A DNA stretch of 64,000 nucleotides from Synergistaceae bacterium (GTDB lineage Bacteria > Synergistota > Synergistia > Synergistales > Synergistaceae). The stretch spans positions 24,814 through 88,813 of the forward strand of contig JAUNJZ010000001.1 of NCBI GenBank assembly GCA_030533085.1, read 5' to 3'. Both the position numbers and the translations under genes were made by a program. Below are positions 27,460 through 64,000 of this stretch, one piece after another (within the stretch, counting starts at the first letter, position 1; the number at the start of each line of letters is the position of its first letter). The notes under the pieces are model-generated. The model did not search any database. It was not told where the DNA came from and was given only the letters and a program-made list of their open reading frames with translations.

Positions 27460-27479
27460 TCTGCCCACTCCCCCTTGGC

Positions 27480-29093: not shown

Positions 29094-29309
29094 TATTGAC
29101 CGCTCCTTTATTTCACTCTGCCTAACAATCATATTTTCCCAGATCAACGCGCATCAGGCAAGAATTTTTCCCGCCGCTTGCGCGCGCAGTCCATAGCCGC
29201 ACATAATAGAATACCAGCCCGCCGCGAGCAGCTCACGGCAGGCTGGTCAGACAAAGAAGAATAGAGAGAGAGTGAATATCGGCTCCGGCTCCTGCCGCCC
29301 TGCCGAGGA

Positions 29310-30346: not shown

Positions 30347-30482
30347 TGTTTAAAATATCTTTCATTTGCCCCGTATCACTTTATTAACTGAGAAAAAGCC
30401 TTAAAGGATATAGGACTGATCCTTAATCTAGCTCTTATCTAATTAGACTAGCACTGTCAAATCGATACAGTTTCAGCCATTT

Positions 30483-32879: not shown

Positions 32880-32971
32880 TGTATGCCCCTCCTTTGTAAA
32901 CTGGTTTTGTACCAGAACACGGCGTTTTGCCGTAGAAATCATTTAATCGCAATATCACATAAGATATACAA

Positions 32972-34276
32972 TTACATATTACCTATGACATAGTTTGGAA
33001 GCCATAGCGCCAGCTCTGGAAAGTACGTAACGGCCATTAGCGTAGGGATCCAGGCAAAGAATAAAAATTTCAGTGTGGTCGGGAGCATCTCGGCTACTTT
33101 TACTTTCATCACTCCAGCGCCAAAATAAAGACATGGCGCAGTTGGCGGAGAAAGCAGGCCTATACCGATATTCACGCCGATAATCGCCGCAAAATGTATG
33201 GGGTCAACGCCAAATTCCTGCAAGATCGGGATAAATATCGGCGAGCATAGCAAAATAGCGCTGGTATCGTCCATAATCATACCTATTATCAATAATATTA
33301 TATTCGTTCCCAACAGTATGATATATTTGTTATCTGACAGGTTTTTGAGTGCGCTGGTAATCATTCCAGGCAGATCTTCCATTATGTATATGCGGCTCAA
33401 CATCATGATACAAAAAATCATCACCATGATTACGCCTGTACTTGCCGCTGTTTCTATTAACGTTTCATAGAGGTTTTTAAAAGTAAGCTTTTTATATACG
33501 AAAAAACCTACAGGTATCGTATAAATAACAGCGACAGCCGCAGCTTCGGTAGGTGTGAAAAAGCCGCTGTATATACCACCAAGGACAATGAACGGCATGG
33601 TCAGCGCTGGAACAGCAGACACTGTTCTGTTCTTCGCCATTTCCAGGAACTCAGAATAGCTCATCTTTTCCCTGCTTTTAATATTCTTGTCGTTTCTAAG
33701 AATAAAGTAGCTGGTAACAGAAAGCAGAAACACCAGCAAAAGGCCAGGTCCTACTGTGGCAAGGAAGCATGCCAACAACGACTGCCGTCCCGCCCATGAA
33801 TACAACACCATGTGCGCGCTGGGCGGTATCAATAGCCCAAGCGGAGCCGCACAAGTGACAAGAGCTGCGGCAAAGCCTTTGTCGTATCCGGCCTCCTCAA
33901 ATCTCGGTTTCATGATCGAACCGATACAAGACAAGGTTGCCAGACTGCTGCCGGCAATAGAACCAAACGCGGCGCTGGCAACCACCGCAACTACTGCAAG
34001 GCCGCATTTTATTCTACCCACAAAGATATCAACAAACTCGACAAGAGTTTTTCCAATACCGCTTTGGTTCATTAATGAACCTACCGCGATAAAGAGCGGT
34101 ACGCAAAGCAAGACGAGAGAATTTACAACTCCATAGCCATATGTCAGCAGAAAACTTGTCTTGTATCCCAAAGTAACAACCAGAAACAACGCCGCGGCCA
34201 AAAATGCGTACTGTATATACATCCCAAGCAACAGGCCGGCGATTATCATCAATATAGCAATAAATATGAATGTCAT
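32972..34276 (-). CDS. TRAP transporter large permease (DctM family)
   Basis: 434-aa polytopic membrane protein, directly downstream of the DctQ-like and DctP-like genes. Confidence 0.85.
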   Translation of the reverse strand: MTFIFIAILMIIAGLLLGMYIQYAFLAAALFLVVTLGYKTSFLLTYGYGVVNSLVLLCVPLFIAVGSLMNQSGIGKTLVEFVDIFVGRIKCGLAVVAVVASAAFGSIAGSSLATLSCIGSIMKPRFEEAGYDKGFAAALVTCAAPLGLLIPPSAHMVLYSWAGRQSLLACFLATVGPGLLLVFLLSVTSYFILRNDKNIKSREKMSYSEFLEMAKNRTVSAVPALTMPFIVLGGIYSGFFTPTEAAAVAVIYTIPVGFFVYKKLTFKNLYETLIETAASTGVIMVMIFCIMMLSRIYIMEDLPGMITSALKNLSDNKYIILLGTNIILLIIGMIMDDTSAILLCSPIFIPILQEFGVDPIHFAAIIGVNIGIGLLSPPTAPCLYFGAGVMKVKVAEMLPTTLKFLFFAWIPTLMAVTYFPELALWLPNYVIGNM

Positions 34277-34282
34277 CTGCCG

Positions 34283-34813
34283 TTATCCTTTCCTTGTCAG
34301 TGCAACCAGATGGTTGTAATCTCTAATCGTATAAACGGTTAGATAGAGGGCCGTTATTACGAAAGACAACAAAATCGCAGTCTGAGGAATGAAATATGGA
34401 ATATTCCACAATGATGTTACCGTCCATGTTTCTATTGACCTTGCCACCATATTATATGCCAGTACGACAAAAATAAAGTTTATGGAAGTTTGCAGTATCC
34501 CTGCTGCAAGCTTTGCCACAGCCAACAGCTTTTCCCCCATCATCGTCGCCAGGATATCCGCCTTAATATGTTCTTCCTTACTCATTGCATATGCCGCACC
34601 AATGAAATACATCCAGAAAGAATCAACAAGCACTATCTCGTCATATCCGTATAGATCCGCGTGAAGTACATATCTCGCCAGCACAACCGCTCCCAGTATG
34701 ACCAGCATCAAAACTGTAGTGAGGAACATGATGAATCTCTGTACCTTAAGTAAAGACTTCCAAATTTCAGAGTCCATGATGCTGTTTATAAATTGTATCT
34801 CTCTCACTTTCAA
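34283..34813 (-). CDS. TRAP transporter small permease (DctQ family)
   Basis: 176 aa with four hydrophobic segments. Lies between the DctP and DctM homologs. Start uncertain. Confidence 0.75.
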   Translation of the reverse strand: MKVREIQFINSIMDSEIWKSLLKVQRFIMFLTTVLMLVILGAVVLARYVLHADLYGYDEIVLVDSFWMYFIGAAYAMSKEEHIKADILATMMGEKLLAVAKLAAGILQTSINFIFVVLAYNMVARSIETWTVTSLWNIPYFIPQTAILLSFVITALYLTVYTIRDYNHLVALTRKG

Positions 34814-34893
34814 TTCACTCCCTTCGCTTTTTTACATAAGGGCATGCCATACAAGCATGCCCTTATGTATCAACGTAATTGTGCTTACAGTTT

Positions 34894-35922
34894 TTACTTT
34901 CCCGGTTTCGTAGCCGCGACCTGTTTGTCAAGAGCTTCAAGGAATTCTTTTCCAAACACGTCGTTGTATTTCGGCCATATCTTTTTACGAAGCTCACTAT
35001 GTAGTTTATAATAATCGTCGTCGGTATATTCGTTAATCTCTATGCCATAATCCTTAAGCAGCCTTGTAAACTCCACTTCTTTTTCTTCCATCAGGGTAAG
35101 AGTTTTCTGCGCCCAGCTTTTGAAAACATCGGAAACAATCTGCTGTTCCTCTGGAGAGAACGAGGCCCAAAGCTCCTCATTACAGATTATCCACGTAGGT
35201 GGGCAGTGAAATCTATTGTAGTCGATATATTTTATGATATCCTTGCCGACAAGCCATGACGTTTCAAGCGTTTGTCCGGTAGCGCCGTCCACCTGACCTG
35301 TCTGCATCGCGTTCCAAACCTCTGACAGATCCATTGTCAGCGTCTGATATCCCATCGCAACAGTGCTGTCTCTGTAGAGTGGCATTCCTGGAACACGGAG
35401 GCTCAGCTTTTTATTTTCAAAACCACTGAAGGATTCAGGGCGTTTTCCTTTCGCGAAAACAAAGCAAGCGTACGGTTCCGGCCAACCGCCGATACTTTTG
35501 ACCTTTATATCTTTTAAGACTTCGTCCATCTTTTTTGCAATCAGCGAGTCTTCTGCAAAACAGATCTCCGCATACTGTTTATACCCCATAGGAGCGTATG
35601 CCGGAAGATTGAGCAAGTCCAAACGAGGGTCATATTTCTTTGTGGGCCATGTCGCGCCGAACTCAATAGTACCCTGTCTGACTTCTTCAATCACATCTTC
35701 GTAACTTCCAAGCTGGCCGCCAGGAAAAATTTTTATCGAGATTTTGCCGTCTGTCTCATTTTTTATCTGCTCTGCGGCAGAAACCAATCCCTGTGTAATA
35801 TAACTTTCAGCAACGTACGGAGCATACATCTTCAACGTTCTAGCTTCAGCAACCCCGCTAGCAACAAACAGACCAAATAACGCACAAATAGATATTATTT
35901 TTACAAAACTTTGCTTTTTCAT
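34894..35922 (-). CDS. TRAP transporter substrate-binding protein (DctP family)
   Basis: 342 aa. Signal peptide MKKQSFVKIISICALFGLFVASGVAEA, with a DctP-like periplasmic-binding-protein body. Confidence 0.8.
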   Translation of the reverse strand: MKKQSFVKIISICALFGLFVASGVAEARTLKMYAPYVAESYITQGLVSAAEQIKNETDGKISIKIFPGGQLGSYEDVIEEVRQGTIEFGATWPTKKYDPRLDLLNLPAYAPMGYKQYAEICFAEDSLIAKKMDEVLKDIKVKSIGGWPEPYACFVFAKGKRPESFSGFENKKLSLRVPGMPLYRDSTVAMGYQTLTMDLSEVWNAMQTGQVDGATGQTLETSWLVGKDIIKYIDYNRFHCPPTWIICNEELWASFSPEEQQIVSDVFKSWAQKTLTLMEEKEVEFTRLLKDYGIEINEYTDDDYYKLHSELRKKIWPKYNDVFGKEFLEALDKQVAATKPGK

Positions 35923-36072
35923 AATACACTCCCCCTATTCAGAAATAACCAGCACACAAAAACCGACGAAATCATACTAATACGCACATACCACACAAAA
36001 AGGAGCAAATTAATTAAATTTAAGGGAAAACTGACTTTTTTGCTTCCGACAAGACCGCACACGTCGTGCCGG

Positions 36073-36714
36073 TTACGCAACCCTTAAAAGTCTTTTCGCA
36101 GCTTCAACTGCTGAGCTCGCGTCCTCCGAATAAACCGCGCCTATTTTTTCGGCATACATGGGCGAAGTAGGCGCTCCTCCAATCATTACCTTTGTTGAAT
36201 CACTGAGTCCTTCCTCTTTGAGTACGTCGATTACCTCCTTCATTTTTGCCATCGTTGTGGTAAGCATTGCCGACATCCCCAATATGTCAGGTGAATACTC
36301 TTTCACCTTTTCAGCAATCTGGGCAGCCTGAACATCAATGCCTATGTTAATAACCTCAAAACCCGCGCCTTCCAGCATCATCCCCACAAGCTTTATGCCG
36401 ATGTCATGCAGATCGCCCTCGACAGTTACCGTTAGGATTCTGCCTTTTCTCTCAACTCCTTCCTCTACCAGTAGATTGCGGATGACGTCGATGCCGCCCT
36501 GCAACGCTTTCGCAGACACTAGAACCTCCGGGACAAACATTTCCCCATCCTTGAAAAGCTCTCCAACTTCATTCATCCCAACGATCAAGCCGTCATTAAG
36601 AATTTTCCCCGCGGATACGCCTCCCTCCACAGCTTCCTGAACATATGCAGTTGTCTGTTTCACATTGCCCTCTAGAACCGCTTCAGCAATATTCCTAAGT
36701 ATTTCTTCACTCAT
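36073..36714 (-). CDS. corrinoid (cobalamin-binding) protein 1, MtbC/MttC/MtgC-like
   Basis: B12-binding DxHxxG motif in TVEGDLHDIGIKLVGMMLEGAGFEVINIG, plus SAMLTTTM and MIGGAP. Confidence 0.9.
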   Translation of the reverse strand: MSEEILRNIAEAVLEGNVKQTTAYVQEAVEGGVSAGKILNDGLIVGMNEVGELFKDGEMFVPEVLVSAKALQGGIDVIRNLLVEEGVERKGRILTVTVEGDLHDIGIKLVGMMLEGAGFEVINIGIDVQAAQIAEKVKEYSPDILGMSAMLTTTMAKMKEVIDVLKEEGLSDSTKVMIGGAPTSPMYAEKIGAVYSEDASSAVEAAKRLLRVA

Positions 36715-36746
36715 TTTCCAGTCTCTCCTTTTAATTTACTATATGG

Positions 36747-38270
36747 CTAGTTTCTTATTATCTTTTCCATCGCTGATTCCGCATCAACGGGAACGTCAAT
36801 CGGTTTATATTTGGCCATCAGCTTATTTTTCTTAGCGATTGCGTTGTTAATCACATTCGTATCCAGATGTTTCTTTTCGCCTTTGACTGCGGAGCAATCA
36901 AAGATCGTACGGGTCCACAACTCTTTTCTAAAATGTGTGAGCGTATGGTCCGTACTGATAAAATCACCGCGCGGTCCCACTCTGTTGATGAGGTCAAAGC
37001 CTTCGGAAGACATATCGACAGTGATTCCGTCTTTTATCCTTTTAACATAATTTGCGACTTCCGAAGCGAGGATAAGAGTTTCGGCGCTGACGGCGTTCAT
37101 CCCTGCCAGAAGCCCCATCCCCTGAGCCATATTTATTCCGCTGAGAGCCGGTAAAAGGCTTGTTGCACACTGTTCTGCCCCGAGCTGATGATCCAGGGCT
37201 AAAGAGTCAGAGAGATTAGAGCCGCCGCCAGTCGGAAGGTTGTAGTGTTTCCCCATTTGCGTAGTCGCAATACGAAGCATACTAAACTCCGGCCCTCCGA
37301 CGCTGACATTTCCGTTTTTCATATTAATCACTCGCGCCCAGCTGGCGTAAATTACAGGTGCGGAAGACTTTACAAGCTTTGCCAGAACGATACTGCTTAA
37401 AAGTTCAGCGTTTGCTATTGCAACGGTTTCAGCAAGGGTTACTGGAGATGTTGCCCCGGCCATCGGCCCCGACTCGACAAAGAGCGGGATTCCATATCTT
37501 GCCGATTCAATAATAAGCTGCATAGAATCGCTGCGGTGATGGAGCGGACTTGTCAGTGTAACAAGAAATGAAAAAAACGGTGTTTTTTTAAGATTTTCCT
37601 CTCCGCCGGCGATATATTCCGCCATCTTTATTATCTTTCGCGCGTTGACAAGATCCTTGGCCTGGGCTTCGATATGCTTCGACGTATAAAGCATGCCGGC
37701 TTTGAATTCATATAAATCAGCGTATTCAGGCTCAACGTCTGTTGCTCCTACGCTGGGCAGGATATAATCAGGCGGATCGAGGATATCGCAGAGTTTCATG
37801 ACATCAATAACATCCTTGCTTGTAGACTGACGGTATTCACCGCTTTCGAAATCAAGATAGTTTGTGGCGAATCCTGTAGTTCCAAAATACAGGTTGTCAC
37901 CGCCTACATGGAGACTCCGGCGACCGCAGCGCCCATGAAGCTCCACCACTGGAATAGAGGCTTCTATTGCCTCATTGATAATTTTTTCTGTAAGAAAAAC
38001 TCTTGTTTTTCCATCAATTCTTGCTCCGGCATCTGCAAAGATTGAAATAGCCTCTTCATCCTCGCAAATAAAACCAACCTTTTCCAGAACATCCCGCGAT
38101 AATCTGTCAATATACCGGATCTCTTCGTTGCTCAAAATCTTAATGTCAGGCTTCAACGATACCAGCTCCTTATGTAAGTAATGTTGCAATGAAAAATTTG
38201 TATTATATATAGCCTTGCAATGAAACGTTTTCTTTATTCTATCAAAACTTTTATCCTTGTCAATATGCAT
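36747..38270 (-). CDS. MttB-superfamily methyltransferase 1 (no in-frame amber codon, so non-pyrrolysine)
   Basis: 507-aa uninterrupted ORF. The N-terminal pattern LSNEEIRYIDRLSRDVLEKVGF and overall length are typical of trimethylamine-methyltransferase-family proteins. Adjacent to a corrinoid protein. Confidence 0.85.
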   Translation of the reverse strand: MHIDKDKSFDRIKKTFHCKAIYNTNFSLQHYLHKELVSLKPDIKILSNEEIRYIDRLSRDVLEKVGFICEDEEAISIFADAGARIDGKTRVFLTEKIINEAIEASIPVVELHGRCGRRSLHVGGDNLYFGTTGFATNYLDFESGEYRQSTSKDVIDVMKLCDILDPPDYILPSVGATDVEPEYADLYEFKAGMLYTSKHIEAQAKDLVNARKIIKMAEYIAGGEENLKKTPFFSFLVTLTSPLHHRSDSMQLIIESARYGIPLFVESGPMAGATSPVTLAETVAIANAELLSSIVLAKLVKSSAPVIYASWARVINMKNGNVSVGGPEFSMLRIATTQMGKHYNLPTGGGSNLSDSLALDHQLGAEQCATSLLPALSGINMAQGMGLLAGMNAVSAETLILASEVANYVKRIKDGITVDMSSEGFDLINRVGPRGDFISTDHTLTHFRKELWTRTIFDCSAVKGEKKHLDTNVINNAIAKKNKLMAKYKPIDVPVDAESAMEKIIRN

Positions 38271-38549
38271 AGCGTGATTCCGTAAAGAACAATGCGCTTT
38301 TTTAAATTTGCTACATTATTGTATTAAAATTTACTCTTTAATATAAAAAATCTTTGAAGAAGGCGGTGTTTGATTTGTAATCTAAATGCAATATAATAAA
38401 AAAGATAAAAACTCAGAAAATTAGCTTTCATAAAAATATAGTTTGCGACAACAAGGTAGCGCAAGGAATGTCATTCTGCGCCAGAAAACGGGGGGAGATC
38501 TTACACTGTCGGGGCAGTCATTGGGTAGGACAGTTCATTGATTATGGAA

Positions 38550-38572
38550 GGCGGCGGAAGGAATCCGCCGCC
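38550..38572 (-). terminator. hairpin downstream of the RpiR-family gene
   Basis: GGCGGCGGA-aggaa-TCCGCCGCC, a perfect 9-bp GC stem about 95 nt after the stop. The T-run is weak. Confidence 0.4.
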
Positions 38573-38666
38573 TCTTGATGGAACTTTCCACACAGTCTAA
38601 GTAGCCCTCCATGGATCCACATGGTATAACCGCCTGTTTAGCCGGTAATCTGACTCCGACAAAAGA

Positions 38667-39542
38667 TCAATCAAGTTTTAAAGTAAAATCATAGTCTTTA
38701 AACTCAAACATATCAGATGAAACAATCAATGATTCATATTTTTTTAACCGCTGTTTGATATTTGTTTTGTCTTTTTTATACATCTCGATGAGCATTGCAT
38801 GTACCAAAGTAAGAGCAGACGAGGCCGGCTCGACAAATAATATATATTTTAGCGGCGTTATCAGATTCTGAGATGCATATTTCAATATTGGAGAAGCATG
38901 ACTGTCCGTTACGGCCAAAATAGGTATATTTAAATTATATAATGTCTCTGCTATCTTCAGAACTTCTTTAGGATATCTGGGATAACTGAATACTACCGCT
39001 ACAGTTTTATTGCTCAACAACTCCAGTTTTCCATAAAATCTCATATTCCTTTGATGAACGACACTGACTTTCTCCTTAAAAAAGCTAAGATAATCAGCAA
39101 AGTATTCTGTAATGTAATGTTGCGTCGGTCCGCCAACTAAAACTATATTATCCGCTTCCATCAACGTTTCAACAAACCTGTCAAAATCGGCGGGATCGAT
39201 TGACGCCAAAGACTCATCCAATAGATTTTTTTCTAACATGAATATGTCCTGATATGTAGGGAAATCAGAGCCACACGGCACAATCTGCCTGAACGGATCA
39301 TATTGGTTTGGTTTTTGCACCTGTTTTCTAAGATCCAACTGGAAATCAGAAAAACTATTATAGCCAATCGCATAAACAAAGCGGGTTAGCGTTGCTTCGC
39401 TCACACCTACGTTTTTAGCAATCTTGGAGGCATTCATCAAAGCGACATCATATATATGTTCGCATATATATTCTCCAATAGCGACCTGTTTGTTTGTGAG
39501 ATTGGGCGTTGCCTGCATAATTTTTTCGTTGATTGTTGCCAT
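38667..39542 (-). CDS. MurR/RpiR-family transcriptional regulator (HTH_6 + SIS domain)
   Basis: N-terminal HTH: LTNKQVAIGEYICEHIYDVALMNASKIAKNVGVSEATLTRFVYAIGYNSFSDFQ. C-terminal SIS-like region: NIVLVGGPTQH. Confidence 0.85.
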   Translation of the reverse strand: MATINEKIMQATPNLTNKQVAIGEYICEHIYDVALMNASKIAKNVGVSEATLTRFVYAIGYNSFSDFQLDLRKQVQKPNQYDPFRQIVPCGSDFPTYQDIFMLEKNLLDESLASIDPADFDRFVETLMEADNIVLVGGPTQHYITEYFADYLSFFKEKVSVVHQRNMRFYGKLELLSNKTVAVVFSYPRYPKEVLKIAETLYNLNIPILAVTDSHASPILKYASQNLITPLKYILFVEPASSALTLVHAMLIEMYKKDKTNIKQRLKKYESLIVSSDMFEFKDYDFTLKLD

Positions 39543-40242
39543 AAGAATCCCCTCACTGTAGACGCTGAAATCAGTTCTGGATTCAGGCTGGTATTTCCCG
39601 GCCCGATCCGCCTCACATAATTAACCAGACAGTCTGTATATTAAATCAACATCAGCAAAACCGCCAATGTTTTATCCAGGTTTCTCCTGCATAAAAATAT
39701 GCGCTGAACGGGTATATACAACAAGCCGCTCCGCGCATATACAAATCCATGCTTACGAAGATAGACCGTCGCCCCATGCCCATCGCATTAGCTAACTGCC
39801 GCGTTTTCGCGAGGTCTTCTGGCTTTTGGCCGTTCCCTGGCGTCTGCCTTCCCATCATGAGTCATAAACGACAGTGGCTGATGCGACCCAGCGTGCAGAA
39901 TATCTACCATATTCCACATGACCAATTACAGTAGCGAGGCTGCTTCGGACTTTCACCGATATTGTCTCACTTCAAAAACGCTAACTAAACAAAGACAAAA
40001 AACATCTCTGTCTTAAATTACGGTATCACATTTCTATAAAAAACGCAATATAGGAAATATTATTAACAGATTTACAATTTAAATGCAGCATGGCGTGCCT
40101 TTTCTCCGCACGCTGTTCTTTCGATCTGCATATTATTTGGGTGAAAGCACTGATATACAGTTGCTTCACTGTTTATCTCCGTAAATGGCAATCAACACTG
40201 CCGCCGCTCTGAATCACGATACAGACTGTGCTTTTGCAACAA

Positions 40243-55464: not shown

Positions 55465-56991
55465 GTGGCTACAAATGAAACTCAGTCGTGGGGCTCAAGA
55501 TGGGGATTTATTATTTCCGCAATCGGCATGACGATAGGAACGGGCGCTATGTGGCGCTTCCCGCGCGTCGCGGCGATGTACGGCGGTATGCCTTTCATGA
55601 TTGCTCTGATCATAGCGTTATTTACATGGAGCATCCCAATTCTGATGTTTGAGGCCTATCTGGGCAAGACGACGCGAGTCGGGCTGATAGCGTCCATCAT
55701 CAAAACTATAGGTAAAAAGTTTGCATGGCTTGGCACCTGCTATGCGTGGATAACAGTATTTCTTACGGCATACTACATTGTCGTATTCGGATGGACGATC
55801 AGATATCTCGCCTATTCGGTAATGGGTACGATAACCGCCGGCGTCGATACAGACGCACTGTGGATACAGTTCTCGACAGGCAGCTACAATATGGTTATAT
55901 GGTGGCTTATCGGTCTGGCGGCCTGTGTCGGAATCATCTATAAGGGCGATTCCAGCGGGATAGAAAAGTTGAGCAAGGTCGTAATGCCCGTGTGGCTGCT
56001 GCTGATTGTCGCGCTGATGATACGCGCCGTCACCCTGCCAAATGGAACGGAAGGCATCAAGTATCTCTTTCTGGACGACTGGGCGGCCTTCAAAAATCCT
56101 ACCATGTGGCTGGAGGCTTTCACCCAGTGCGTGTGGCAGGCTGCTCCCGGGCTTGGCCTGATGCACTCCTACGCCATTTACATGAGCAAAGATGAGGACA
56201 TCAGCCTCAACTGCACGCTTGTGCCATTCTCCGTGACCTCCGCGGCGCTGCTCTGCGGCATGACCGTCGTGCCGACGATATTCGCACTTTCGCCCGACCC
56301 GATGGGAGCTATCGCCTCCGGCAACACAGGCATGACATTCATACACCTCACAAAGCTTTTCACCGTAATTCCCGGCGGAAGATATCTGAGCGTGATGTTC
56401 TTCCTCGCCCTTGTCATAGCGGCCTATACCTCCTCTATATCCATGGTGGAGATGACGACCCGCATCATTCAGGACGCCGGCGTTGAGAGAAAGAAATCCA
56501 TAGCCGGCGCGGGAATAATCCTTCTGGTTTTGGGGATCCCCTCCGCCCTTGACATCAATTTCCTCAACAATCAGGACTGGGTCTACGGCGTCGGAGTTCT
56601 CATCAGCGGCTTGCTGCTGGCCTTTGCCGCCATTAAGATAGGGCTTGGAAAAATATGGAACGAAAGCATCGGCCCATGCTCGGATCTGGATGTTCCTTAC
56701 ATATTCAAAAACATCTATCTCGTCCCATTCCTGTTCGTGGCCATCATGGGCATGTGGGCGTACTCAACGATTCAGAGCTATCCCGGAGAATGGATGCGCT
56801 GGCTGCCGATATCGAAGTACACATACTCCTTCGGGACGCTGCTTTACCAGTGGGCGTTTATGTTCGCAGTAGCCTTCGTGACCAACGGCTTTGTCGCCAA
56901 GCTGATGAGCCGCGGCTTCGACTCCGCACGGGACGTTGACGGCGGCACTTATGATGAAGAAGAGGCGGTGGCTGTAAATGTGGAAAATTAA
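55465..56991 (+). CDS. neurotransmitter:sodium symporter (NSS/SNF) family transporter
   Basis: SRWGFIISAIGMTIGTGAMWRFPRVAAMYGG matches the NSS TM1 signature. About 12 TM segments. GTG start. Confidence 0.85.
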   Translation: MATNETQSWGSRWGFIISAIGMTIGTGAMWRFPRVAAMYGGMPFMIALIIALFTWSIPILMFEAYLGKTTRVGLIASIIKTIGKKFAWLGTCYAWITVFLTAYYIVVFGWTIRYLAYSVMGTITAGVDTDALWIQFSTGSYNMVIWWLIGLAACVGIIYKGDSSGIEKLSKVVMPVWLLLIVALMIRAVTLPNGTEGIKYLFLDDWAAFKNPTMWLEAFTQCVWQAAPGLGLMHSYAIYMSKDEDISLNCTLVPFSVTSAALLCGMTVVPTIFALSPDPMGAIASGNTGMTFIHLTKLFTVIPGGRYLSVMFFLALVIAAYTSSISMVEMTTRIIQDAGVERKKSIAGAGIILLVLGIPSALDINFLNNQDWVYGVGVLISGLLLAFAAIKIGLGKIWNESIGPCSDLDVPYIFKNIYLVPFLFVAIMGMWAYSTIQSYPGEWMRWLPISKYTYSFGTLLYQWAFMFAVAFVTNGFVAKLMSRGFDSARDVDGGTYDEEEAVAVNVEN

Positions 56992-57060
56992 CGCTGTAAT
57001 TCTGCTTAGCGCAGTGTGGGGGTTCAATATTTACCTCCTAATGAAAGCTGCTTCCAGTCA

Positions 57061-57087
57061 AAAGTAGGCTCCCCCCTACTTTGTTTT
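57061..57087 (+). terminator. intrinsic terminator of the NSS gene
   Basis: AAAGTAGG-ctcccc-CCTACTTT followed by GTTTT. Confidence 0.6.
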
Positions 57088-57297
57088 GAAGAGGCGCAGG
57101 CCCCGGGAGACCACAGCTCCCGAGTCGCCTGCGCCTTAAACATGTCCCAAACCGGTAATTCAGCGCCAAACTCCCGCGCCAAAGCGCCCGGCATAAGCAA
57201 AAAGCAGAACGGATCTCCATGCTATGCTGATGCAATATAAGCTGTAATTAAACGGTTATCGCTCCCATACCTGATAACAGGGAGGGGGTGTATCCTG

Positions 57298-57381
57298 ATG
57301 CTTCTCGTTACCTTTCTGGTCTCTGTTATGGCAAGCGTAGTCGGCTACTATGTTTGCAAATGGTTGGACAGAGATGACTAA
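57298..57381 (+). CDS. candidate type I toxin (27-aa hydrophobic peptide, Fst/PepA1-like)
   Basis: MLLVTFLVSVMASVVGYYVCKWLDRDD. The GGGAGGGGG RBS is 8 nt upstream, and an upstream CTCCC could pair with the SD. A strong terminator lies 23 nt downstream. Confidence 0.5.
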   Translation: MLLVTFLVSVMASVVGYYVCKWLDRDD

Positions 57382-57404
57382 TGCGATAACCGGCCAGTAT
57401 AAGA

Positions 57405-57437
57405 AACGCCCCGGCGGCTATCCGGGGCGTTTTGTGT
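57405..57437 (+). terminator. intrinsic terminator after the toxin-like ORF
   Basis: AACGCCCCGG-cggctat-CCGGGGCGTT followed by TTGTGT. Confidence 0.7.
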
Positions 57438-57666
57438 ATCTCAATGCTTTTCGTTACCAGCAACTATATTGTAGCACATTACAGCAGGCCGTCAAGGCGG
57501 AATGCCAAAATAACGTTATACGGCTAATTGCAAAAAATAGAGACGGAGTCAAAAGTAAAGTTAAATGAGAACGCCCTATTTTATTTGTGTTTTGCCATTA
57601 AAAGTCTCTTTCATGGCGTTCGTAAGGCGAAAGCTCCGCTTTCATGTGACTTGGCTGAGTTATATA

Positions 57667-57697
57667 GCCGCTCCGAAAATTTTCGTTCGGAGCGGCT
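57667..57697. terminator. bidirectional hairpin downstream of the surface-protein gene
   Basis: AGCCGCTCCGAA-(7 nt)-TTCGGAGCGGCT, a 12-bp stem with a T-run on the plus side. Confidence 0.6.
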
Positions 57698-57728
57698 TTT
57701 GTCATTTAGCTTTTACTCTGTCTTTTCG

Positions 57729-59591
57729 TTACTTCTTCCTTCTCCACAGCATCAGCGGCAGCAGCGCGAGCAGAGCCGCCGCGCCCGTACCTGCCGCGCA
57801 GCCGCCGGAGGAGCCGCCGTCAGGGGTCGGGGTCGGGGTGGGGGTGGTGGATGTCCTTGCAAACAGAGCCGGGTCAGCAATATAGTTATCTCTCTTGTCA
57901 AGGTCAAAGTCGCCGTTGTCTTTGATGTAAAGGACGAGCTTGTAGGTTTCAGATGAGGATATCGACGAAGCGATGGCATCTGTGGACGTTAAGACTGTGA
58001 AATGTCCGTCTGTGTAATCCGCGGATGTGGCGGCGTAGGTGAACTTAATGCCGGAGAAGTCCGCCTTTACTTTTATCAGGTTTATATCTTCCGGTTTCTC
58101 CGCGAGGAAATCGGAGCCTTTCAGCTCAAATGTCGCGACGGAGAGGTTTCCGGCTGCGCTAACAGTCGTTTCAAATAGCGGAGTCGGGTTGATTTCGCTG
58201 ACCGTCGTATTTCCTGAGGCAAGGAGCGATTCCGCGGCGGTCTGGAGCCTTGTCGTTTCAAATGAAATTCCGCCCACTCCAAGCGCGATAAGGTCTGACG
58301 ATTTCACGCCTATCCGCGTCGCATAAACATCCAGAGAGGCGACGTCAAAGGCCGGAACGTCGGAAGAGAGAGCGTCCGCGCTGGCAGGTATGAAAGCGGC
58401 CGGGGTCGCGACAGGAGTCAGCTTCGCTCCATCCCTGACGCCGCTCATCGTTATTATGGCAAGTTGTCCGATATTTCCGCCGACCTGAGCGTTAGTATAA
58501 TGTGTCTCCGTTGGGCCGTCATACCCGTAAATCCCATTCCCCACATTGACCCAGAGTATCTTTGTATTGCTGTCATAGGCAATGCCCGCGCCATAGGCGG
58601 TCGCGTCAAACTGCCTGAACAGCGTCCACTTTGTAAAGTCTCCGAGATTCGCTATGGTCGTTTCATATACGCGATGGCTATAAGTATAGTTCCAGCTCGC
58701 ATCAACAGTGTAGCCGAATGCCTGTACATAAACATTATCCCCGGCAATGGCAATCCCGCTGAAATAGTGGCACCATGAGGAGTCGGCAGCGTGAGCTATA
58801 TCCGCGGATATGATGGGAGTGCTTGACATTGTGTCTAAGTCAACGACCTCGATCAAAGAACTGGGATTATAACCATTGGCGGTATACGAATCCCCATTAC
58901 TGACGACGTAGAGCTTGTTGCCCTGCTGAACAAAAACGCCGCTGCCCATTCCGTTGACGTTTTTGCCATATATATCAGCGCTCGCGGCAACTGATAAATC
59001 AGCGTTTAATTTCACAAGGTGAGATTGTTTATAATCGGTATAGCCGCTATGATCAGAGAAAATGGCGTAGAGATACCCTCCGTATGCGACAAGCCCTTCT
59101 CCGGGCGTTGTGCGGCCGGAGATATTGCAGTTATAAACGGTATTATCGGCCGTATACTTGTCATCTGCCGTATCAAATCTTGAAACATTACCGCCGTAGG
59201 TTATACCATAAAGATACCCGCCAAGAGAGGCCATGGCGCGCATATTGGTCAAATGGTCATTTTTCGTCTCTGCCAGCGGCCTTGTCCAGGCGGTTGCGGC
59301 AGGGTCGTATATCCATATTGTGTCTGCTGCGTTTCCGTATGCATCACCGCACAAAGCCAGCGCCACTCTGGAAGCTCCAGCGGCATTCGTAAAGTTTGCG
59401 ATGCGCTGACCAGCGCTGCCGGTCGTGGTAACAGCGACTCTCGCAGGAGCGTTGGTTCCTCTGATTGTACCAATGACAGCCGGGTCGCTATAGGTTGCCT
59501 GTGCCGTGTAAAGAACGTCCGCCGACGCCGATATCGCCAAAACGGCGCAGAGCAGGAGCGCGGTAATAACGGTGCTGATTTTTCTTTTCAT
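57729..59591 (-). CDS. secreted propeller-like surface protein with PT linker and Synerg-CTERM-type sorting signal
   Basis: Signal peptide MKRKISTVITALLLCAVLAISASA. Recurring blade-like strands GGYLYGI, GGYLYAIF, NKLYVVS, DNVYVQA and KILWVNV. The C-terminus is TPTPTPTPDGGSSGGCAAGTGAAALLALLPLMLWRRKK. AAGGAGG RBS, 21 nt after the receptor gene. Confidence 0.65.
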   Translation of the reverse strand: MKRKISTVITALLLCAVLAISASADVLYTAQATYSDPAVIGTIRGTNAPARVAVTTTGSAGQRIANFTNAAGASRVALALCGDAYGNAADTIWIYDPAATAWTRPLAETKNDHLTNMRAMASLGGYLYGITYGGNVSRFDTADDKYTADNTVYNCNISGRTTPGEGLVAYGGYLYAIFSDHSGYTDYKQSHLVKLNADLSVAASADIYGKNVNGMGSGVFVQQGNKLYVVSNGDSYTANGYNPSSLIEVVDLDTMSSTPIISADIAHAADSSWCHYFSGIAIAGDNVYVQAFGYTVDASWNYTYSHRVYETTIANLGDFTKWTLFRQFDATAYGAGIAYDSNTKILWVNVGNGIYGYDGPTETHYTNAQVGGNIGQLAIITMSGVRDGAKLTPVATPAAFIPASADALSSDVPAFDVASLDVYATRIGVKSSDLIALGVGGISFETTRLQTAAESLLASGNTTVSEINPTPLFETTVSAAGNLSVATFELKGSDFLAEKPEDINLIKVKADFSGIKFTYAATSADYTDGHFTVLTSTDAIASSISSSETYKLVLYIKDNGDFDLDKRDNYIADPALFARTSTTPTPTPTPDGGSSGGCAAGTGAAALLALLPLMLWRRKK

Positions 59592-59612
59592 CTTCTTTTC
59601 CTCCTTTTATAT

Positions 59613-61616
59613 TTAGAACTCCCATGTCAGTGTGGCATAGAAGGTTCTTCCCTGAATCGGGTACCAGAGCGTACTGCTTACAATCTCCGTGAACTGCTTC
59701 AGATCTACGCTTTTATTGAAGATATCGTCTACCCCCGCGGCTAATTTCAGCCGGTCGTTTATCTGGTATTTAAGCCCGATTCCTGTGGTAAACAAATTAT
59801 CTATTTTTACAAGTCCGGCGGAATCGAGATAGTTATTACCCGTGTATCTGAATTCGAGGTACGCAGAGGCTTTATCATCTTTCAGGAACTTGCGTGAAAG
59901 ACGCAGTAATCCCGACCATTCCGGCCTGTTCGGCAAAGGCGCGCCGCTGCGTGTATCATCTTCGGCCATTTTATTTTTCGCGTCCATCCATGTGAGCGAC
60001 AGGAAACTTTCCCATTTATCCCATTTGACGGCATTTTCAAATTCAACGCCCCAAACGTCGGCTTTGCCGATGTTTATGTACTGTGCCGTTCTGGGGCTCA
60101 CTATTACATATTCGATGAGGTTGTTGGAGCGGCGGCCGAACAAAGTCAGCGTGGCGGCAATATCCGCGCTTTTGACGGAACCTTTCCATGTCGCGCCGAT
60201 GTCCCATTGTGTGCCGTCTTCCCATTTAAGCGCTGGATTTGGGCGCAGCGTCGCGCCGTCGCCGTATTTTTCGTAAAGATTCGGAGCGCGGTTGTAGGTT
60301 CCGCCGGAGGCTTTGACCGTCCAGTGTGAACCGAACTGTTTTGTTATTGCCGCTCCCCATGAAAAATCACCGTCGCCGTCGGCGGCGTTATAGCGGACTA
60401 TCGGAGTCAGCCAGAAGTCGCCTTCTTTGTTGAGGCTGATGGTGTCCTGTATCTGAATGTTCCATGCGTCGCGCGAGTAATCTGATATTGCGTCTAAAGG
60501 AGAAAAGGCAGAATTTAAGATATCTCCCCGCACGTTTAATTTTTCATAGGAGTAGTCAGCGAGGAATTCAAGCAGGTGATTTTCTCCCATTTTGAAGGAA
60601 CCGTCGAACGCAATGCCGAAACGATCCGTTTTATACTCGTTGTGTTTCTCTCCCCCTCCGCCAATGGTATCGTTAGGGTCATCGTAAACCTTGTCCTGTT
60701 CAATGTAATCCATCTTCCAGCCCCACTCCAGATTGCCGGATATCTGCCGTCTGGCGACAGAGAAATCCCATTGCTCCGTGTCAAGTGTCGCCCCTGGAAG
60801 ACTGTTCGCTTTGTCGTTGCCGCGAGCGTTGTATGGAAGTTCCCTGTCGTTTTTCTTCCACGCTCCGCGAACAGACCAGTTGTCATCATTCCATTTCATC
60901 AGAATATCCGTATTTTTATAGCCGTTGTTCTGTCGCTCAGCCGTGTATCCCATCTCTGGCGAATAGTCCATGCCGTTGTCATTCCAGTATTCAAAATCTC
61001 CGTCCGAACGTTCGTAGTTCGCGCCGAAGAAGAAATTCCCCGCGCCGAGGGGCATGTTGTATGAAAGATTTGTCTGGAAGAGGCCGTAGGAGCCTCCGCC
61101 CACGGAGATGGAGCCGCCTGATTTCTCCGGTTTTTTTGTGATGATGTTTATCACGCCGCCCATCGAAGCGCCGGCGAAACGTGCCGGGACGTAGCCCCGG
61201 TAGACCTCTATGCGTTCTACGTTGTCCACCGGAATTGTTGACAGGTCTACGGCGGCTTCGCTGCCGAGGTTCATCAGCACGCCGTCAACAAAGACGGAGA
61301 CTTCTGCCGCCGTGCTGCCGCGCACCGACGCGACCGTATAGGCTCCGCGCCCCTTGGCCTCTATTATGTGCAGGCCGGGGACTCTTTTTAACAGCTCGGG
61401 AAGGTTTTTCTGCTCTCCCTGCATTTCCTGCGGTCTGACGACCGTGACTGTGCTGGGGGAGAGCAGGATATCATCCTCTTCCGCGTCGGCGGTGACTGTT
61501 TCCTCCGGCAGCTGCACAGGGTTTTCCGCCGCGTCGCAGCGGCTGACTGTGACGTAGCCTGCCAGAGAGAAGAACAAGAGAGTGAACAGCAAGATAACAC
61601 GGAATTTACTTTGCAA
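59613..61616 (-). CDS. btuB: TonB-dependent outer-membrane receptor, probable cobalamin/corrinoid receptor
   Basis: Signal peptide, TonB-box-like EETVTA, plug domain (VPGLHII...VRGSTAAEVSVFVDGVLMN...IEVYRG), a 22-strand-size barrel and a C-terminal TLTWEF. Preceded by a cobalamin riboswitch. Confidence 0.8.
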   Translation of the reverse strand: MQSKFRVILLFTLLFFSLAGYVTVSRCDAAENPVQLPEETVTADAEEDDILLSPSTVTVVRPQEMQGEQKNLPELLKRVPGLHIIEAKGRGAYTVASVRGSTAAEVSVFVDGVLMNLGSEAAVDLSTIPVDNVERIEVYRGYVPARFAGASMGGVINIITKKPEKSGGSISVGGGSYGLFQTNLSYNMPLGAGNFFFGANYERSDGDFEYWNDNGMDYSPEMGYTAERQNNGYKNTDILMKWNDDNWSVRGAWKKNDRELPYNARGNDKANSLPGATLDTEQWDFSVARRQISGNLEWGWKMDYIEQDKVYDDPNDTIGGGGEKHNEYKTDRFGIAFDGSFKMGENHLLEFLADYSYEKLNVRGDILNSAFSPLDAISDYSRDAWNIQIQDTISLNKEGDFWLTPIVRYNAADGDGDFSWGAAITKQFGSHWTVKASGGTYNRAPNLYEKYGDGATLRPNPALKWEDGTQWDIGATWKGSVKSADIAATLTLFGRRSNNLIEYVIVSPRTAQYINIGKADVWGVEFENAVKWDKWESFLSLTWMDAKNKMAEDDTRSGAPLPNRPEWSGLLRLSRKFLKDDKASAYLEFRYTGNNYLDSAGLVKIDNLFTTGIGLKYQINDRLKLAAGVDDIFNKSVDLKQFTEIVSSTLWYPIQGRTFYATLTWEF

Positions 61617-61640
61617 GTATAACGACCTCCGAACATATAT

Positions 61641-61950
61641 AAAAAATATACGCGGGAGAGATATGACACCGTCTCCCGCGTATTTATACGTCGGTCAGCC
61701 GCTGCCATGCGCCCTCTGCGCATTTGAAGCCCAATACTCTTCTCGGCAGGTTTTCCGACTCTCGTTCATCCTCTGATACAGATTTTTTCTCTGTACCAGC
61801 GCGGCGCGTTCCACTTGTTTTGTGTTACGTCGCTGCGCTTCCGCGCCTTCTCGCCTTCCGGCAATGGCTTGATGCGGCTTCGTCCCGATTACGGCGGCAG
61901 GGGCCGTTCCGGCTTTTGACCGGATTCCCGTACTCCAAAGAAAATATTCA
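61641..61950 (-). promoter_or_regulatory. cobalamin (B12) riboswitch with terminator expression platform
   Basis: On the minus strand: GGGAAUCCGGUCAAAAGCCGGAACGGCCCCUGCCGCCGUAAUCGGGA, then GCCAUUGCCGGAAGGC, then the B12 box AGUCGGAAAACCUGCC (61745-61760). A terminator follows, CGCGGGAGA-(12 nt)-UCUCCCGCG plus a U-run (61641-61680), then GGAGG and the TTG start at 61616. Confidence 0.8.
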
Positions 61951-62090
61951 ATTATAAAAAACACATCGGGGAAACGCTCTCCCCTTACGCGCTAAATTAT
62001 CACGTCTTCTTTTCGTTGTCAATCAAAATATTTTCCGTTATCCGGCGTTTTTTTGCCGTTATCGCTTATGTTTTCCCCCGGCAAAAAGTA

Positions 62091-62278: not shown

Positions 62279-63424
62279 TTATCTTTCGCCCGTTCCTGTG
62301 AAGAGCAGCCTTTCCATGGAGTTTATGACCGCCTTCGCCGCGACTGTCGGAGTGATTGTTCCCTCTATCACCTTCCTTTCGATTTCTTCCCTGCATTTCG
62401 CGAGTTCCGCGTTCTGCGCTATTCTGTTTCGCAAGTATTCAGAGGTCATCGCGCGAACCCACTCTATGGTCTGTTCCCCGCGTCTTTTTTCAAAGCTTCC
62501 CGACTCTGTGACTGTATCTCGGAAGTCTTTTATGACGCCCCATATATCCGCTATGCCCTCTCCCGTTATCGAGGAGCAGGTATAGGCCCTTGTTTTCCAG
62601 CCTTCGGTGGCTGGGCGCAGGTAGTGGAGTATCTGGTCGTAGTCTGCCCGCGCCGTCATCGCTTTCATTTTGTTGTCGCCGTCGGCTTTATTGACGAGTA
62701 TGCTGTCGGCGAGTTCGATTATTCCCTTTTTTATGCCCTGCAACTCGTCTCCCGCGCCGGTTATTACTACGACGAGGAAGTAATCGACCATCGAGCGCAC
62801 CGTTGTCTCGCTCTGCCCCACGCCTACCGTTTCGACGAGTACGGCGTCGTATCCGGCGGCCTCGCAGAGCAGCATGGTTTCGCGGCTTTTCCTCGTGACT
62901 CCGCCAAGCGAACCGCCGGAGGGCGACGGGCGGATGAAGGCGTTTTTTTCGCGCGCGAGCCCTTCCATGCGCGTTTTGTCCCCCAGTATGCTGCCCTTTG
63001 AGAGGGAGCTTGATGGGTCTACGGCGAGGACGGCCACCTTATGTCCCTCGCCGCAGAGGTATTTGCCGAAGGCTTCTATGAATGTGCTTTTTCCGGCTCC
63101 CGGTACGCCCGTTATCCCTATTCTTATCGCTTTGCCGCTGTGGGGCAGTATTTTCTGTATTATCTCCTGCCCCAGCTCAAAGTGTTTCGGCGCGTTGCTT
63201 TCTATTACCGTTATCGCGCGCGAGAGCATTACGCGGTCGCCCGCCAGTATCCCGCGCGCGTAGTCTTCCGCCGTCAGCGCCCTCTTTGTTGCCGCCGCCG
63301 GCGCGGCGCTTTTCACAGCCGCGCCGCGGTCGTTCGAGAACGGTATGCCGGGCATGACGGAGCAGGCAAATTCCGCTCCCGCGTTTTCATAATGCCAGTC
63401 GGGACGGAAGTTTTTGTCCGTCAT
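62279..63424 (-). CDS. meaB: methylmalonyl-CoA mutase-associated GTPase (ArgK/MeaB)
   Basis: P-loop GITGVPGAGKSTFIEAFG, then LVETVGVGQSE and VNKADGD. Starts 4 nt after the mutase stop. Confidence 0.9.
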   Translation of the reverse strand: MTDKNFRPDWHYENAGAEFACSVMPGIPFSNDRGAAVKSAAPAAATKRALTAEDYARGILAGDRVMLSRAITVIESNAPKHFELGQEIIQKILPHSGKAIRIGITGVPGAGKSTFIEAFGKYLCGEGHKVAVLAVDPSSSLSKGSILGDKTRMEGLAREKNAFIRPSPSGGSLGGVTRKSRETMLLCEAAGYDAVLVETVGVGQSETTVRSMVDYFLVVVITGAGDELQGIKKGIIELADSILVNKADGDNKMKAMTARADYDQILHYLRPATEGWKTRAYTCSSITGEGIADIWGVIKDFRDTVTESGSFEKRRGEQTIEWVRAMTSEYLRNRIAQNAELAKCREEIERKVIEGTITPTVAAKAVINSMERLLFTGTGER

Positions 63425-63427
63425 TGC

Positions 63428-64000
63428 CTATACGCCGGCCGCCGCGAGACGCTTGTTGAGTGTTTCGAGCATCTCTTTTGCCGCCGCCGGTATTACCGTT
63501 CCGGGGCCGAAGATGCAGGCTGCGCCGTGGTCGTATAGGAACTGGTAGTCCTGCGCCGGTATGACGCCGCCGGCTACGACCATGATGTCTCCGCGTCCGC
63601 GTTTTTCCAGCTCTTCCACGAGCTGCGGCAGCAGCGTCTTGTGTCCAGCCGCCAGCGAGCTCATGCCTACAATGTGGACATCGTTGTCAACTGCGTCCTG
63701 CGCCGTCTCTTCCGGCGTCTGGAAGAGCGGCCCTATGTCCACGTCGAAGCCCATGTCGGCGTAGGCGGTGGCTACCACTTTCGCGCCGCGGTCATGTCCG
63801 TCCTGTCCCATTTTCGCGACCATTATTCTTGGGCGGCGGCCTTCGCGTTCCTCAAATTCGTCGGTCATTTTGCGGACTTCGGCTATTATCTCCTCTTCGG
63901 CAAATTCGCTGCTGTAGATGCCGGATATCGAACGTATGACGGCTTTGTGTCTTCCCGCCGCCTTTTCGACTGCGTCGGAGATTTCGCCGAGGCTGGCTCT
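63428..64000 (-). CDS. methylmalonyl-CoA mutase (3' part with the B12-binding domain). The 5' end lies beyond the window.
   Basis: The frame is open to nt 64000 (...[21 protein letters not shown]...). [32 protein letters not shown] carries the DxHxxG cobalamin motif. Confidence 0.9.

Follow-up and report, generated by a model that had tools for sequence, protein, structure and literature searches.

Competition for corrinoids shapes gut and anaerobic communities, and the surface proteins so far known to dock on the vitamin B12 (B12) transporter BtuB and grab the vitamin come from Bacteroidota only. BtuG1-3 of Bacteroides thetaiotaomicron are corrinoid binders rather than enzymes, all BtuG homologs tested in the literature bind B12, their corrinoid-binding face is acidic, and a lipobox cysteine together with the Bacteroidetes lipoprotein export signal is given in the literature as a defining feature. 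BtuG homologs were reported to be exclusive to Bacteroidetes on the basis of BLASTP at 1e-10 (Wexler et al. 2018), and a 2026 review still places the distribution of BtuG in gut Bacteroidota; a literature search combining BtuG with Synergistota terms returned nothing relevant. Here we describe a locus in a 64,000-nucleotide (nt) stretch of DNA from a Synergistaceae bacterium (contig JAUNJZ010000001.1, positions 24,814 to 88,813; hereafter the window, in whose coordinates positions are given), in which a cobalamin riboswitch, a gene for a TonB-dependent receptor and a gene for a 620-amino-acid (aa) secreted protein form, in that order, one transcription unit on the minus strand. We consider it probable, at roughly 0.7, that this is a B12-riboswitch-controlled btuB-like receptor gene co-transcribed with the gene for a surface-anchored beta-propeller that serves as a BtuG-like corrinoid-capture partner. 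Systems of this kind have been described before; novelty lies in the lineage, in the absence of a curated model for the family and, most of all, in an anchoring that is reversed and uses another sorting system.

Two other described systems invite comparison. In Escherichia coli, as here, a B12-sensing leader RNA controls a TonB-dependent B12 receptor composed of Plug and barrel domains, but E. coli BtuB has no surface partner protein. In most accounts the E. coli btuB leader exerts its effect mainly on translation, whereas the leader in the window carries a clear intrinsic terminator. SusD-like and SLAM-type partners share the logic of the present locus, in that the gene for a surface binding protein adjoins that of a TonB-dependent transporter and its product feeds the transporter; they differ in fold (that of SusD is helical), anchoring and substrate, and no sequence or structural relationship to them was found.

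The initial annotation of this locus, made from the letters of the DNA, had recognized a cobalamin riboswitch from its B12 box and a following terminator. The Rfam covariance model RF00174 matched positions 61728 to 61954 over its complete length (model positions 1-189 of 189) with 65.3 bits (E 7.3e-14; the gathering score of the model is 31.5), so that the aptamer was confirmed, although it extends to 61954 and not merely to 61950 as first read. The B12 box, AGUCGGAAAACCUGCC, was read from the sequence at 61760-61745, inside the aptamer, just as quoted. Between the aptamer and the receptor start codon lies the expression platform, an intrinsic terminator (61641-61684) in which AUACGCGGGAGA, a loop and UCUCCCGCGUAU are followed by AUUUUUU. 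Its 13-bp hairpin, at about 61684-61647 and some 25 nt 5' of the receptor start codon, was present in both the minimum free energy and the centroid structures of the 161-nt leader, whose minimum free energy had a z-score of −4.4 and was equalled by none of 200 shuffled sequences. A simple terminator scan missed this hairpin, probably as its loop is longer than the 8-nt limit of the scan. With its hairpin and U-tract, the leader has an expression platform of the terminator type, through which the gene downstream would be switched.

That gene (59613-61616) encodes a receptor of 667 aa; it initiates at TTG, a small correction to the first reading, behind a GGAGG ribosome-binding site (RBS). The protein has a signal peptide, a Plug domain (PF07715, E 5e-19) and a 22-strand-type barrel (TonB_dep_Rec_b-barrel, PF00593, E 3e-35). 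Its top NCBIfam model was TIGR01779 (TonB-B12), at 166 bits where the equivalog cutoff is 599.7, and it scored 122.9 bits against NF007926, for which the cutoff is 836. The nearest solved structure was E. coli BtuB (E 2.9e-21). As the receptor scores far below the cutoffs of the BtuB equivalog models, its assignment to B12 rests on the riboswitch together with E. coli BtuB as the nearest structure; by its domains and nearest relatives we classify the product as a BtuB-type TonB-dependent outer-membrane transporter.

The receptor gene and that of the 620-aa protein (57729-59591) are separated by a spacer of 21 nt, ATATAAAAGGAGGAAAAGAAG (59592-59612), which lies between the TAA stop codon of the receptor and the ATG at 59591 and contains an AAGGAGG RBS, so that the second gene has its own RBS at the spacing originally noted. 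Co-transcription had been proposed unless transcription terminated between 59613 and 59591, and a terminator scan of the minus strand found no hairpin or terminator between these two points. The short gap, the RBS and the lack of an intergenic terminator support co-transcription of the two genes. Thirty-two nt after the stop codon of the second gene there is a 12-bp GC-rich hairpin (57666-57697; −24.4 kcal/mol and z −5.0 on the minus strand), which is the likely end of the operon. Its T-run is found on the plus strand only, the strand for which the terminator scan listed it, and it may serve as a bidirectional terminator.

From blade-like strands across residues of about 25-380, the 620-aa protein had been guessed to be a propeller. 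An AlphaFold (AF2) model built with three sequences had a mean predicted local distance difference test score (pLDDT) of 43.5 and was set aside; the model used instead, from an alignment of 85 family sequences, had a pLDDT of 89.0 and a predicted template-modelling score of 0.76. As assigned by DSSP, about 28 strands over residues 25-380 grouped into seven four-stranded sheets, and the count of seven blades, taken from the secondary-structure string, bears out the guess. The propeller domain (residues 25-385; 58437-59519) has a pLDDT of mostly 88-98 and is acidic, with a net charge of −12 and an isoelectric point of 4.8. When the model was compared with the PDB using Foldseek, chain 8bmx_D, the surface lipoprotein BtuG2 of B. 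thetaiotaomicron, ranked second, with a target-normalised template-modelling (TM) score of 0.70 and a root-mean-square deviation of 4.6 Å; this TM score was the highest among the 50 matches listed, in which WD40 and Kelch propellers reached 0.45-0.61. The protein thus resembles BtuG in its main domain, a propeller with seven blades, some 360 residues and an acidic surface, and in its best structural match by target-normalised TM, and it resembles BtuG1 in carrying an extra C-terminal domain.

The initial annotation had regarded the protein as a possible analog unrelated to BtuG, a view that did not survive comparison at the profile level. When the 85-sequence family profile was searched against all PDB sequences, designed Kelch proteins came first and BtuG1 was the best natural protein, with E-values of 4.5e-8 for 8PTD, 6.9e-8 for 8PTF and 1.1e-7 for 8BLW chain B; the papers on these entries confirm them as BtuG1 of B. 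thetaiotaomicron. The match to 8BLW chain B was a single colinear stretch over family profile positions 128-387, whereas the Kelch matches spanned about 100 profile positions in repeated stretches. The BtuG1 fragment from this alignment was used to gather BtuG1-like sequences, which belong mostly to Pfam family PF16819 and go under the NCBI name 'YncE family protein', and 41 of them were aligned. Comparison of the family with these 41 sequences by hhalign gave a probability of 98.4% and an E-value of 7.4e-15 over 231 columns, reaching the end of both propellers, whereas controls in which the BtuG alignment was reversed or its columns were shuffled gave E-values of 0.25-0.85. Blade-shifted alternatives scored at most 49.5 (best E 1.3e-5) compared to 117.2 for the alignment in register. 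A G-x-N...GKLYV-x-x-x-GG motif was common to the family and the BtuG1 alignment, and the family hidden Markov model (HMM) matched 64 of 120 BtuG1-like fragments. Sequence identity to BtuG is about 12-13%. We concluded from these profile comparisons that the 620-aa protein is a remote homolog of BtuG, with a shared origin of the fold and a different means of anchoring.

The difference in anchoring involves both ends of the protein: BtuG has an N-terminal lipobox and export signal, whereas the window protein has a signal peptide of the signal peptidase I type and a C-terminal Synerg-CTERM signal. The signal peptide, residues 1-24 (59520-59591), reads MKRKISTVITALLLCAVLAISASA followed by D and forms a helix from 2 to 17 in the model; it ends in ASA just before DVLYT, no lipobox is present in the 620-aa protein, and the ASAD motif is kept across three close homologs. 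At the other end, the proposed Pro/Thr linker is indeed present as TTPTPTPTPDG (57813-57845), with a pLDDT below 50 and disorder in the model for residues 591-601, and it leads into the sorting signal (residues 594-620; 57732-57812), SSGGC-AAGTGAAALLALLPLMLW-RRKK. The suggested reading of this tail as an SGGC motif, a hydrophobic helix and RRKK was upheld by TIGR04564 (Synerg-CTERM), which matched at the extreme C-terminus over model positions 1-27 of 27 with 38.1 bits against a cutoff of 22.5; the tail helix spans residues 600-618 in the model. The layout, in which a Gly/Ser-rich motif closing in Cys leads to a helix rich in Leu with a Pro in it and then to a basic cluster, follows the plan of the Synerg-CTERM and MYXO-CTERM tails, which are described as Cys-containing C-terminal sorting signals in the Haft preprint (10.1101/2023.06.07.544157), where processing of Synerg-CTERM by MrtS and a type II secretion system is predicted. 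What is described there is the signal and its predicted sorting enzyme rather than what the cargo proteins do; in our case the cargo would be the nutrient-capture partner of a TonB-dependent receptor. Only two versions of this defining preprint mention Synerg-CTERM in the literature searched.

Between the propeller and the linker lies an inserted region (residues 386-582; 57846-58436), in which the model places two helices and then a beta-sandwich (residues 392-582; pLDDT about 86-97 for 450-580). The 'beta-rich domain' originally placed after the propeller therefore stands as a beta-sandwich, but not as a B12-binding module: we considered a second such module of the BtuH/BtuJ type (DUF4465, PF14717) and rejected it, there being no PDB or Pfam signal for it and a signal only for 'choice-of-anchor U'. 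When a profile of 20 sequences was made for the region (residues 385-592), 8 of the 20 members matched the 'choice-of-anchor U' model NF041766 (best E 1.6e-7), the insert of the window protein itself matched it weakly (E 0.012), and the profile found no PDB match better than an E-value of about 1. As the name of NF041766 points to variable C-terminal anchors, we read the insert, which appears weakly related to it, as a stalk or spacer beside the sorting signal, in contrast to the BtuH-type B12-binding domain. The insert is common to about 20-21 family members; shorter homologs pass from propeller to linker to tail.

The extent of the family became visible only with exhaustive HMMER searches. 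A word-indexed protein search returned three relatives with the single protein and two with the family alignment, whereas exhaustive HMMER with a three-sequence profile gave 245 cluster representatives at E <=1e-3, 135 of them at E <=1e-10 (clusters at 50% identity). There is no Pfam model for this propeller family, and no conserved stretch of 7-10 columns was found in the 85- or 12-sequence propeller alignments. A tail with Gly/Ser-Cys, a hydrophobic stretch and Arg/Lys was present in 105 of the 151 sequences retrieved, and about 21 of the remainder were fragments shorter than 300 aa. One subgroup of about 410-480 aa (P0067, P0085, P0090, P0096, P0108, P0113, P0120, P0125, P0129-P0131, P0134, P0142, P0144-P0146 and P0148; E 1e-9 to 1e-26) has neither signal peptide nor Cys tail and has a Lys/Arg/Ala-rich terminal helix. 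Residues G41, N116, Y128, Y175, L199, G233 and D340 are nearly invariant in the family. Paralogs that work with other partners may be present in the wider family.

The initial annotation had raised the question of whether the pairing of btuB with a propeller gene is conserved in Synergistota. Species-representative genomes were scanned with the receptor as anchor and metagenomes with the three-sequence propeller alignment, and the loci found are referred to by number (L001 and so on). Two close homologs lie downstream of a receptor ortholog with RF00174 matches upstream at 89.7 and 87.6 bits. The receptor-anchored scan yielded ten Synergistota loci (from Synergistes, Cloacibacillus, Aminobacteriaceae and unclassified members), in nine of which a family member directly followed the receptor; the propeller-anchored metagenome scan yielded four loci, and in all three of those with upstream sequence the receptor was directly upstream. 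Taken together, the receptor gene was directly upstream of the propeller gene in 15/15 informative Synergistota loci (the window, L001, L002, L004, L005, L007-L013, L022, L023 and L025), a figure that reflects gene context for about 15 family members, mostly found via the receptor. Operons that begin with a riboswitch are those of the window, L001, L002, L004, L005, L007, L008, L009, L012 and L023, and L010 gave a weak partial match. The operons of L008 and L011 extend into genes for a Peripla_BP_2 (BtuF-like) protein, a FecCD permease and an ExbB-like protein, and in L013 a TonB gene lies just upstream. As with BtuG, therefore, the propeller gene adjoins a btuB-type receptor gene under a cobalamin riboswitch, and some genomes hold more than one locus: two metagenome-assembled genomes (MAGs) each have two receptor-propeller loci (L004 and L007 in JAEXGR01; L009 and L011 in CALGZM01), recalling the multiple btuBG loci of Bacteroides.

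Several side observations were made at these loci. In L008 a single receptor-propeller-btuF/C-like operon is preceded, within 1.6 kb and on one strand, by three full-length cobalamin riboswitches (6303-6461, 6911-7070 and 7708-7895, with 89.6, 97.4 and 91.0 bits). The receptor is split into two open reading frames (ORFs) in the metagenome contigs of L001 (417-2429) and L023 (4913-6892), by a frameshift or an assembly error, or possibly as a pseudogene.

A number of findings weigh against a BtuG-like capture partner and need to be set beside the evidence in its favor. Propellers generally give profile matches across families. The reverse search, with the BtuG1-like HMM against the family, produced six weak matches only, and the window protein, which had no Pfam match of any kind at E up to 1, accordingly gave none to PF16819, missing the threshold of the family to which BtuG1-like proteins belong; nor was PF16819 among the 25 most-matched of 29 Pfam families found with the 85 members at E up to 0.1. 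Kelch Pfam models were weakly matched by 11 of the 85 members (best 7e-5), and the window protein alone found only Kelch proteins in the PDB (KLHL20, E 3.8e-5). Given that PF16819 was not matched and that the single sequence found only Kelch, the homology to BtuG is visible only with profiles. As to gene order, L006 holds a receptor ortholog without a propeller gene after it, L013 shows no riboswitch in the sequence available, and L011 and L013 leave the contig before the head of the operon. The L006 receptor is a Cloacibacillus ortholog, 62% identical (217-2756), followed by a gene on the opposite strand and a downstream riboswitch. Finally, the basis for the processing of Synerg-CTERM is an in-silico preprint (10.1101/2023.06.07.544157).

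Those Kelch matches, the designed Kelch proteins at the head of the profile search and the many WD40 and Kelch entries with similar E-values in the Foldseek list are what would be expected if the protein were a Kelch-like surface protein of a generic sort, for instance an adhesin or other ligand binder, co-transcribed with the receptor incidentally and similar to BtuG only as propellers ordinarily are. We regard this as quite improbable, since the Kelch matches covered about 100 positions in repeats whereas BtuG1 aligned colinearly over about 260, the in-register hhalign score stood far above those of the shifted alignments, BtuG2 gave the best TM score, and chance would hardly account for adjacency to a B12-riboswitch receptor in every informative locus of several Synergistota genera. 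A pure Kelch-propeller identity was rejected, with no Pfam match in the window protein, PDB coverage of about 100 positions and only weak matches in the 11 relatives.

Four loci (L007, 860-9244; L009, 2892-10135; L023, 22-8254; L025, 158-7141) have two further large Synerg-CTERM proteins encoded ahead of the receptor and propeller genes. The first is of about 600-690 aa with GLUG motifs (two ORFs in L023) and the second of about 810 aa with a weak PKD-like match; in L007 the GLUG motif was above the Pfam cutoff (E about 1e-11), whereas the PKD-like and immunoglobulin-like matches were weak and sub-threshold. A riboswitch stands at the head of these operons in L007, L009 and L023, and none was detected in L025, which starts near the first gene. 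The extra proteins of L007 were considered as relatives of BtuH and BtuJ, and this was rejected as no PDB relative was found. They may be additional components of a corrinoid relay, and by analogy with BtuG/H/J/K the arrangement in the four loci suggests an independently assembled, multi-protein extracellular relay.

Lying between riboswitch and receptor, these extra proteins could also be the real binders, in which case the propeller, at only 12-13% identity to BtuG, might be a receptor-associated accessory that does not bind corrinoids but acts as a cap to stabilize or protect the receptor or as a docking site for other B12-binding surface proteins. This seems unlikely to us, although less so than the Kelch-like alternative: the operons of the window and of most relatives (L001, L002, L004, L005, L008 and L012) hold just the receptor and the propeller, leaving the propeller as sole candidate binder, its domain is acidic like the corrinoid face of BtuG, and every BtuG homolog tested in the literature has bound B12.

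The Foldseek list also contained sialidase-like and NirN-like propellers, many propellers are enzymes, and the polar residues N116 and D340 are nearly invariant in the family, all of which could be accommodated by a surface enzyme that acts on corrinoids or their carriers, for example by freeing B12 from the binding proteins of hosts or microbes or by remodelling cobamides. No enzyme-family match was obtained in Pfam or NCBIfam, however, and the nearest characterized relatives, BtuG1-3, bind and do not catalyse, so that we find such an activity very improbable, the least likely of the three alternatives.

We therefore return to the propeller as a BtuG-like capture partner of the receptor, an idea supported in silico by the predicted fold, the profile-level relationship to BtuG and the conserved gene order. 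For BtuG binding has been demonstrated, whereas for the window propeller it is predicted from genes and models. On the strength of the published behavior of BtuG and of the predicted Synerg-CTERM pathway, from which surface exposure, corrinoid binding, contact with the receptor and hand-over are extrapolated, we propose the following sequence of events. When corrinoid is plentiful, the riboswitch would be bound, the terminator would form and transcription would halt before the receptor gene; when it is scarce, the receptor and propeller genes would be transcribed on one mRNA. The propeller protein would be exported by way of its Sec signal peptide, the predicted MrtS protease would recognize its Synerg-CTERM tail, in which the invariant Cys is the probable site of cleavage and lipid modification by this enzyme, and a dedicated type II secretion system would move the protein to the cell surface, on the outer face of the outer membrane. 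There the acidic seven-bladed propeller would capture corrinoids from the medium in its central cavity, either as a lid on the receptor or by swinging over it on the stalk and the Pro/Thr linker, and the ligand would be handed to the barrel for TonB-driven import.

In those propellers that are closed by a shared terminal blade, the first strand is the neighbor of the last, and in our model the N-terminal strand is at 25-31 and the C-terminal strand at 373-380; the C-terminal tether could, on this model, leave the domain near the point at which the N-terminal lipid tether of BtuG does. If the capture function is correct, the same propeller would be tethered from either end, plausibly so if the termini lie close as in propellers with a shared terminal blade, the capture mechanism would extend to Synergistota, anaerobes of gut and digester, and a Synerg-CTERM cargo would have been given a concrete physiological role, the first in the literature searched. 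The family offers new candidate scaffolds for corrinoid binding and would allow the dependence of the lid mechanism on N-terminal lipidation to be tested.

Possible counterparts were seen in other phyla. In a Myxococcota MAG (L017, 7585-10956) and a Longimicrobiales MAG (L019, 4017-7602), a riboswitch and a TonB-dependent receptor are followed by a lipobox protein of 365-389 aa (...FFYAC and ...AITAC); both proteins weakly match the BtuG1-like HMM and that of L017 also matches the Synergistota family HMM (E 6e-11), and by these matches they look like BtuG-like lipoproteins outside Bacteroidota. The partner downstream of riboswitch and TonB-dependent receptor in L018 (1-3749) is a protein of 506 aa that neither propeller HMM (BtuG1-like or Synergistota family) matched; it came close to threshold for the type IX secretion system (T9SS) type A sorting domain, with 22.8 bits against a cutoff of 23, and it may carry a third kind of C-terminal surface-sorting signal. 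A broader view would be that the BtuB-BtuG arrangement of receptor and propeller lid is old and widespread in diderms, with the anchor swapped in each phylum (a lipobox with export signal in Bacteroidota, a plain lipobox in the Myxococcota and Longimicrobiales of L017 and L019, and Synerg-CTERM in Synergistota) and with a multi-protein relay in some Synergistota operons; we hold this view tentatively, at odds a little below even.

The surroundings of the locus agree with the high corrinoid demand claimed for this organism in the initial annotation, in that an MttB-family methyltransferase with a corrinoid protein, a RACo activase, MeaB and the B12-binding subunit of methylmalonyl-CoA mutase were all found in the window. 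The genes for mutase subunits and MeaB lie immediately upstream of the riboswitch (62279-63868, minus strand), and MeaB, the upstream neighbor in the window, is kept in L004 and L005, which show the same arrangement with the mutase (L004, 372-1517; L005, 1935-7496); L005 has a further riboswitch (1634-1813) before its mutase genes. A second RF00174 riboswitch in the window (39791-40009, minus strand; 41.8 bits) heads a long run of genes on the same strand (26692-39542), among them those for an RpiR/SIS-type regulator, the MttB-family methyltransferase, the corrinoid protein, a TRAP transporter (DctPQM), a glycyl-radical enzyme, a URO-D-type methyltransferase and the RACo activase. A B12 riboswitch before genes that use rather than acquire B12, together with a regulator, is less usual. 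On the other side of the locus, about 700 nt (57000-57700) separate the end of the operon from a convergent gene for an SNF-family transporter (55465-56991, plus strand). Neither a long ORF nor a tRNA was found in this interval, and nothing in Rfam came near its threshold there; it includes a strong promoter-like site on the minus strand, TTGACG-16-TACAAT with a TG, at 57495-57468.

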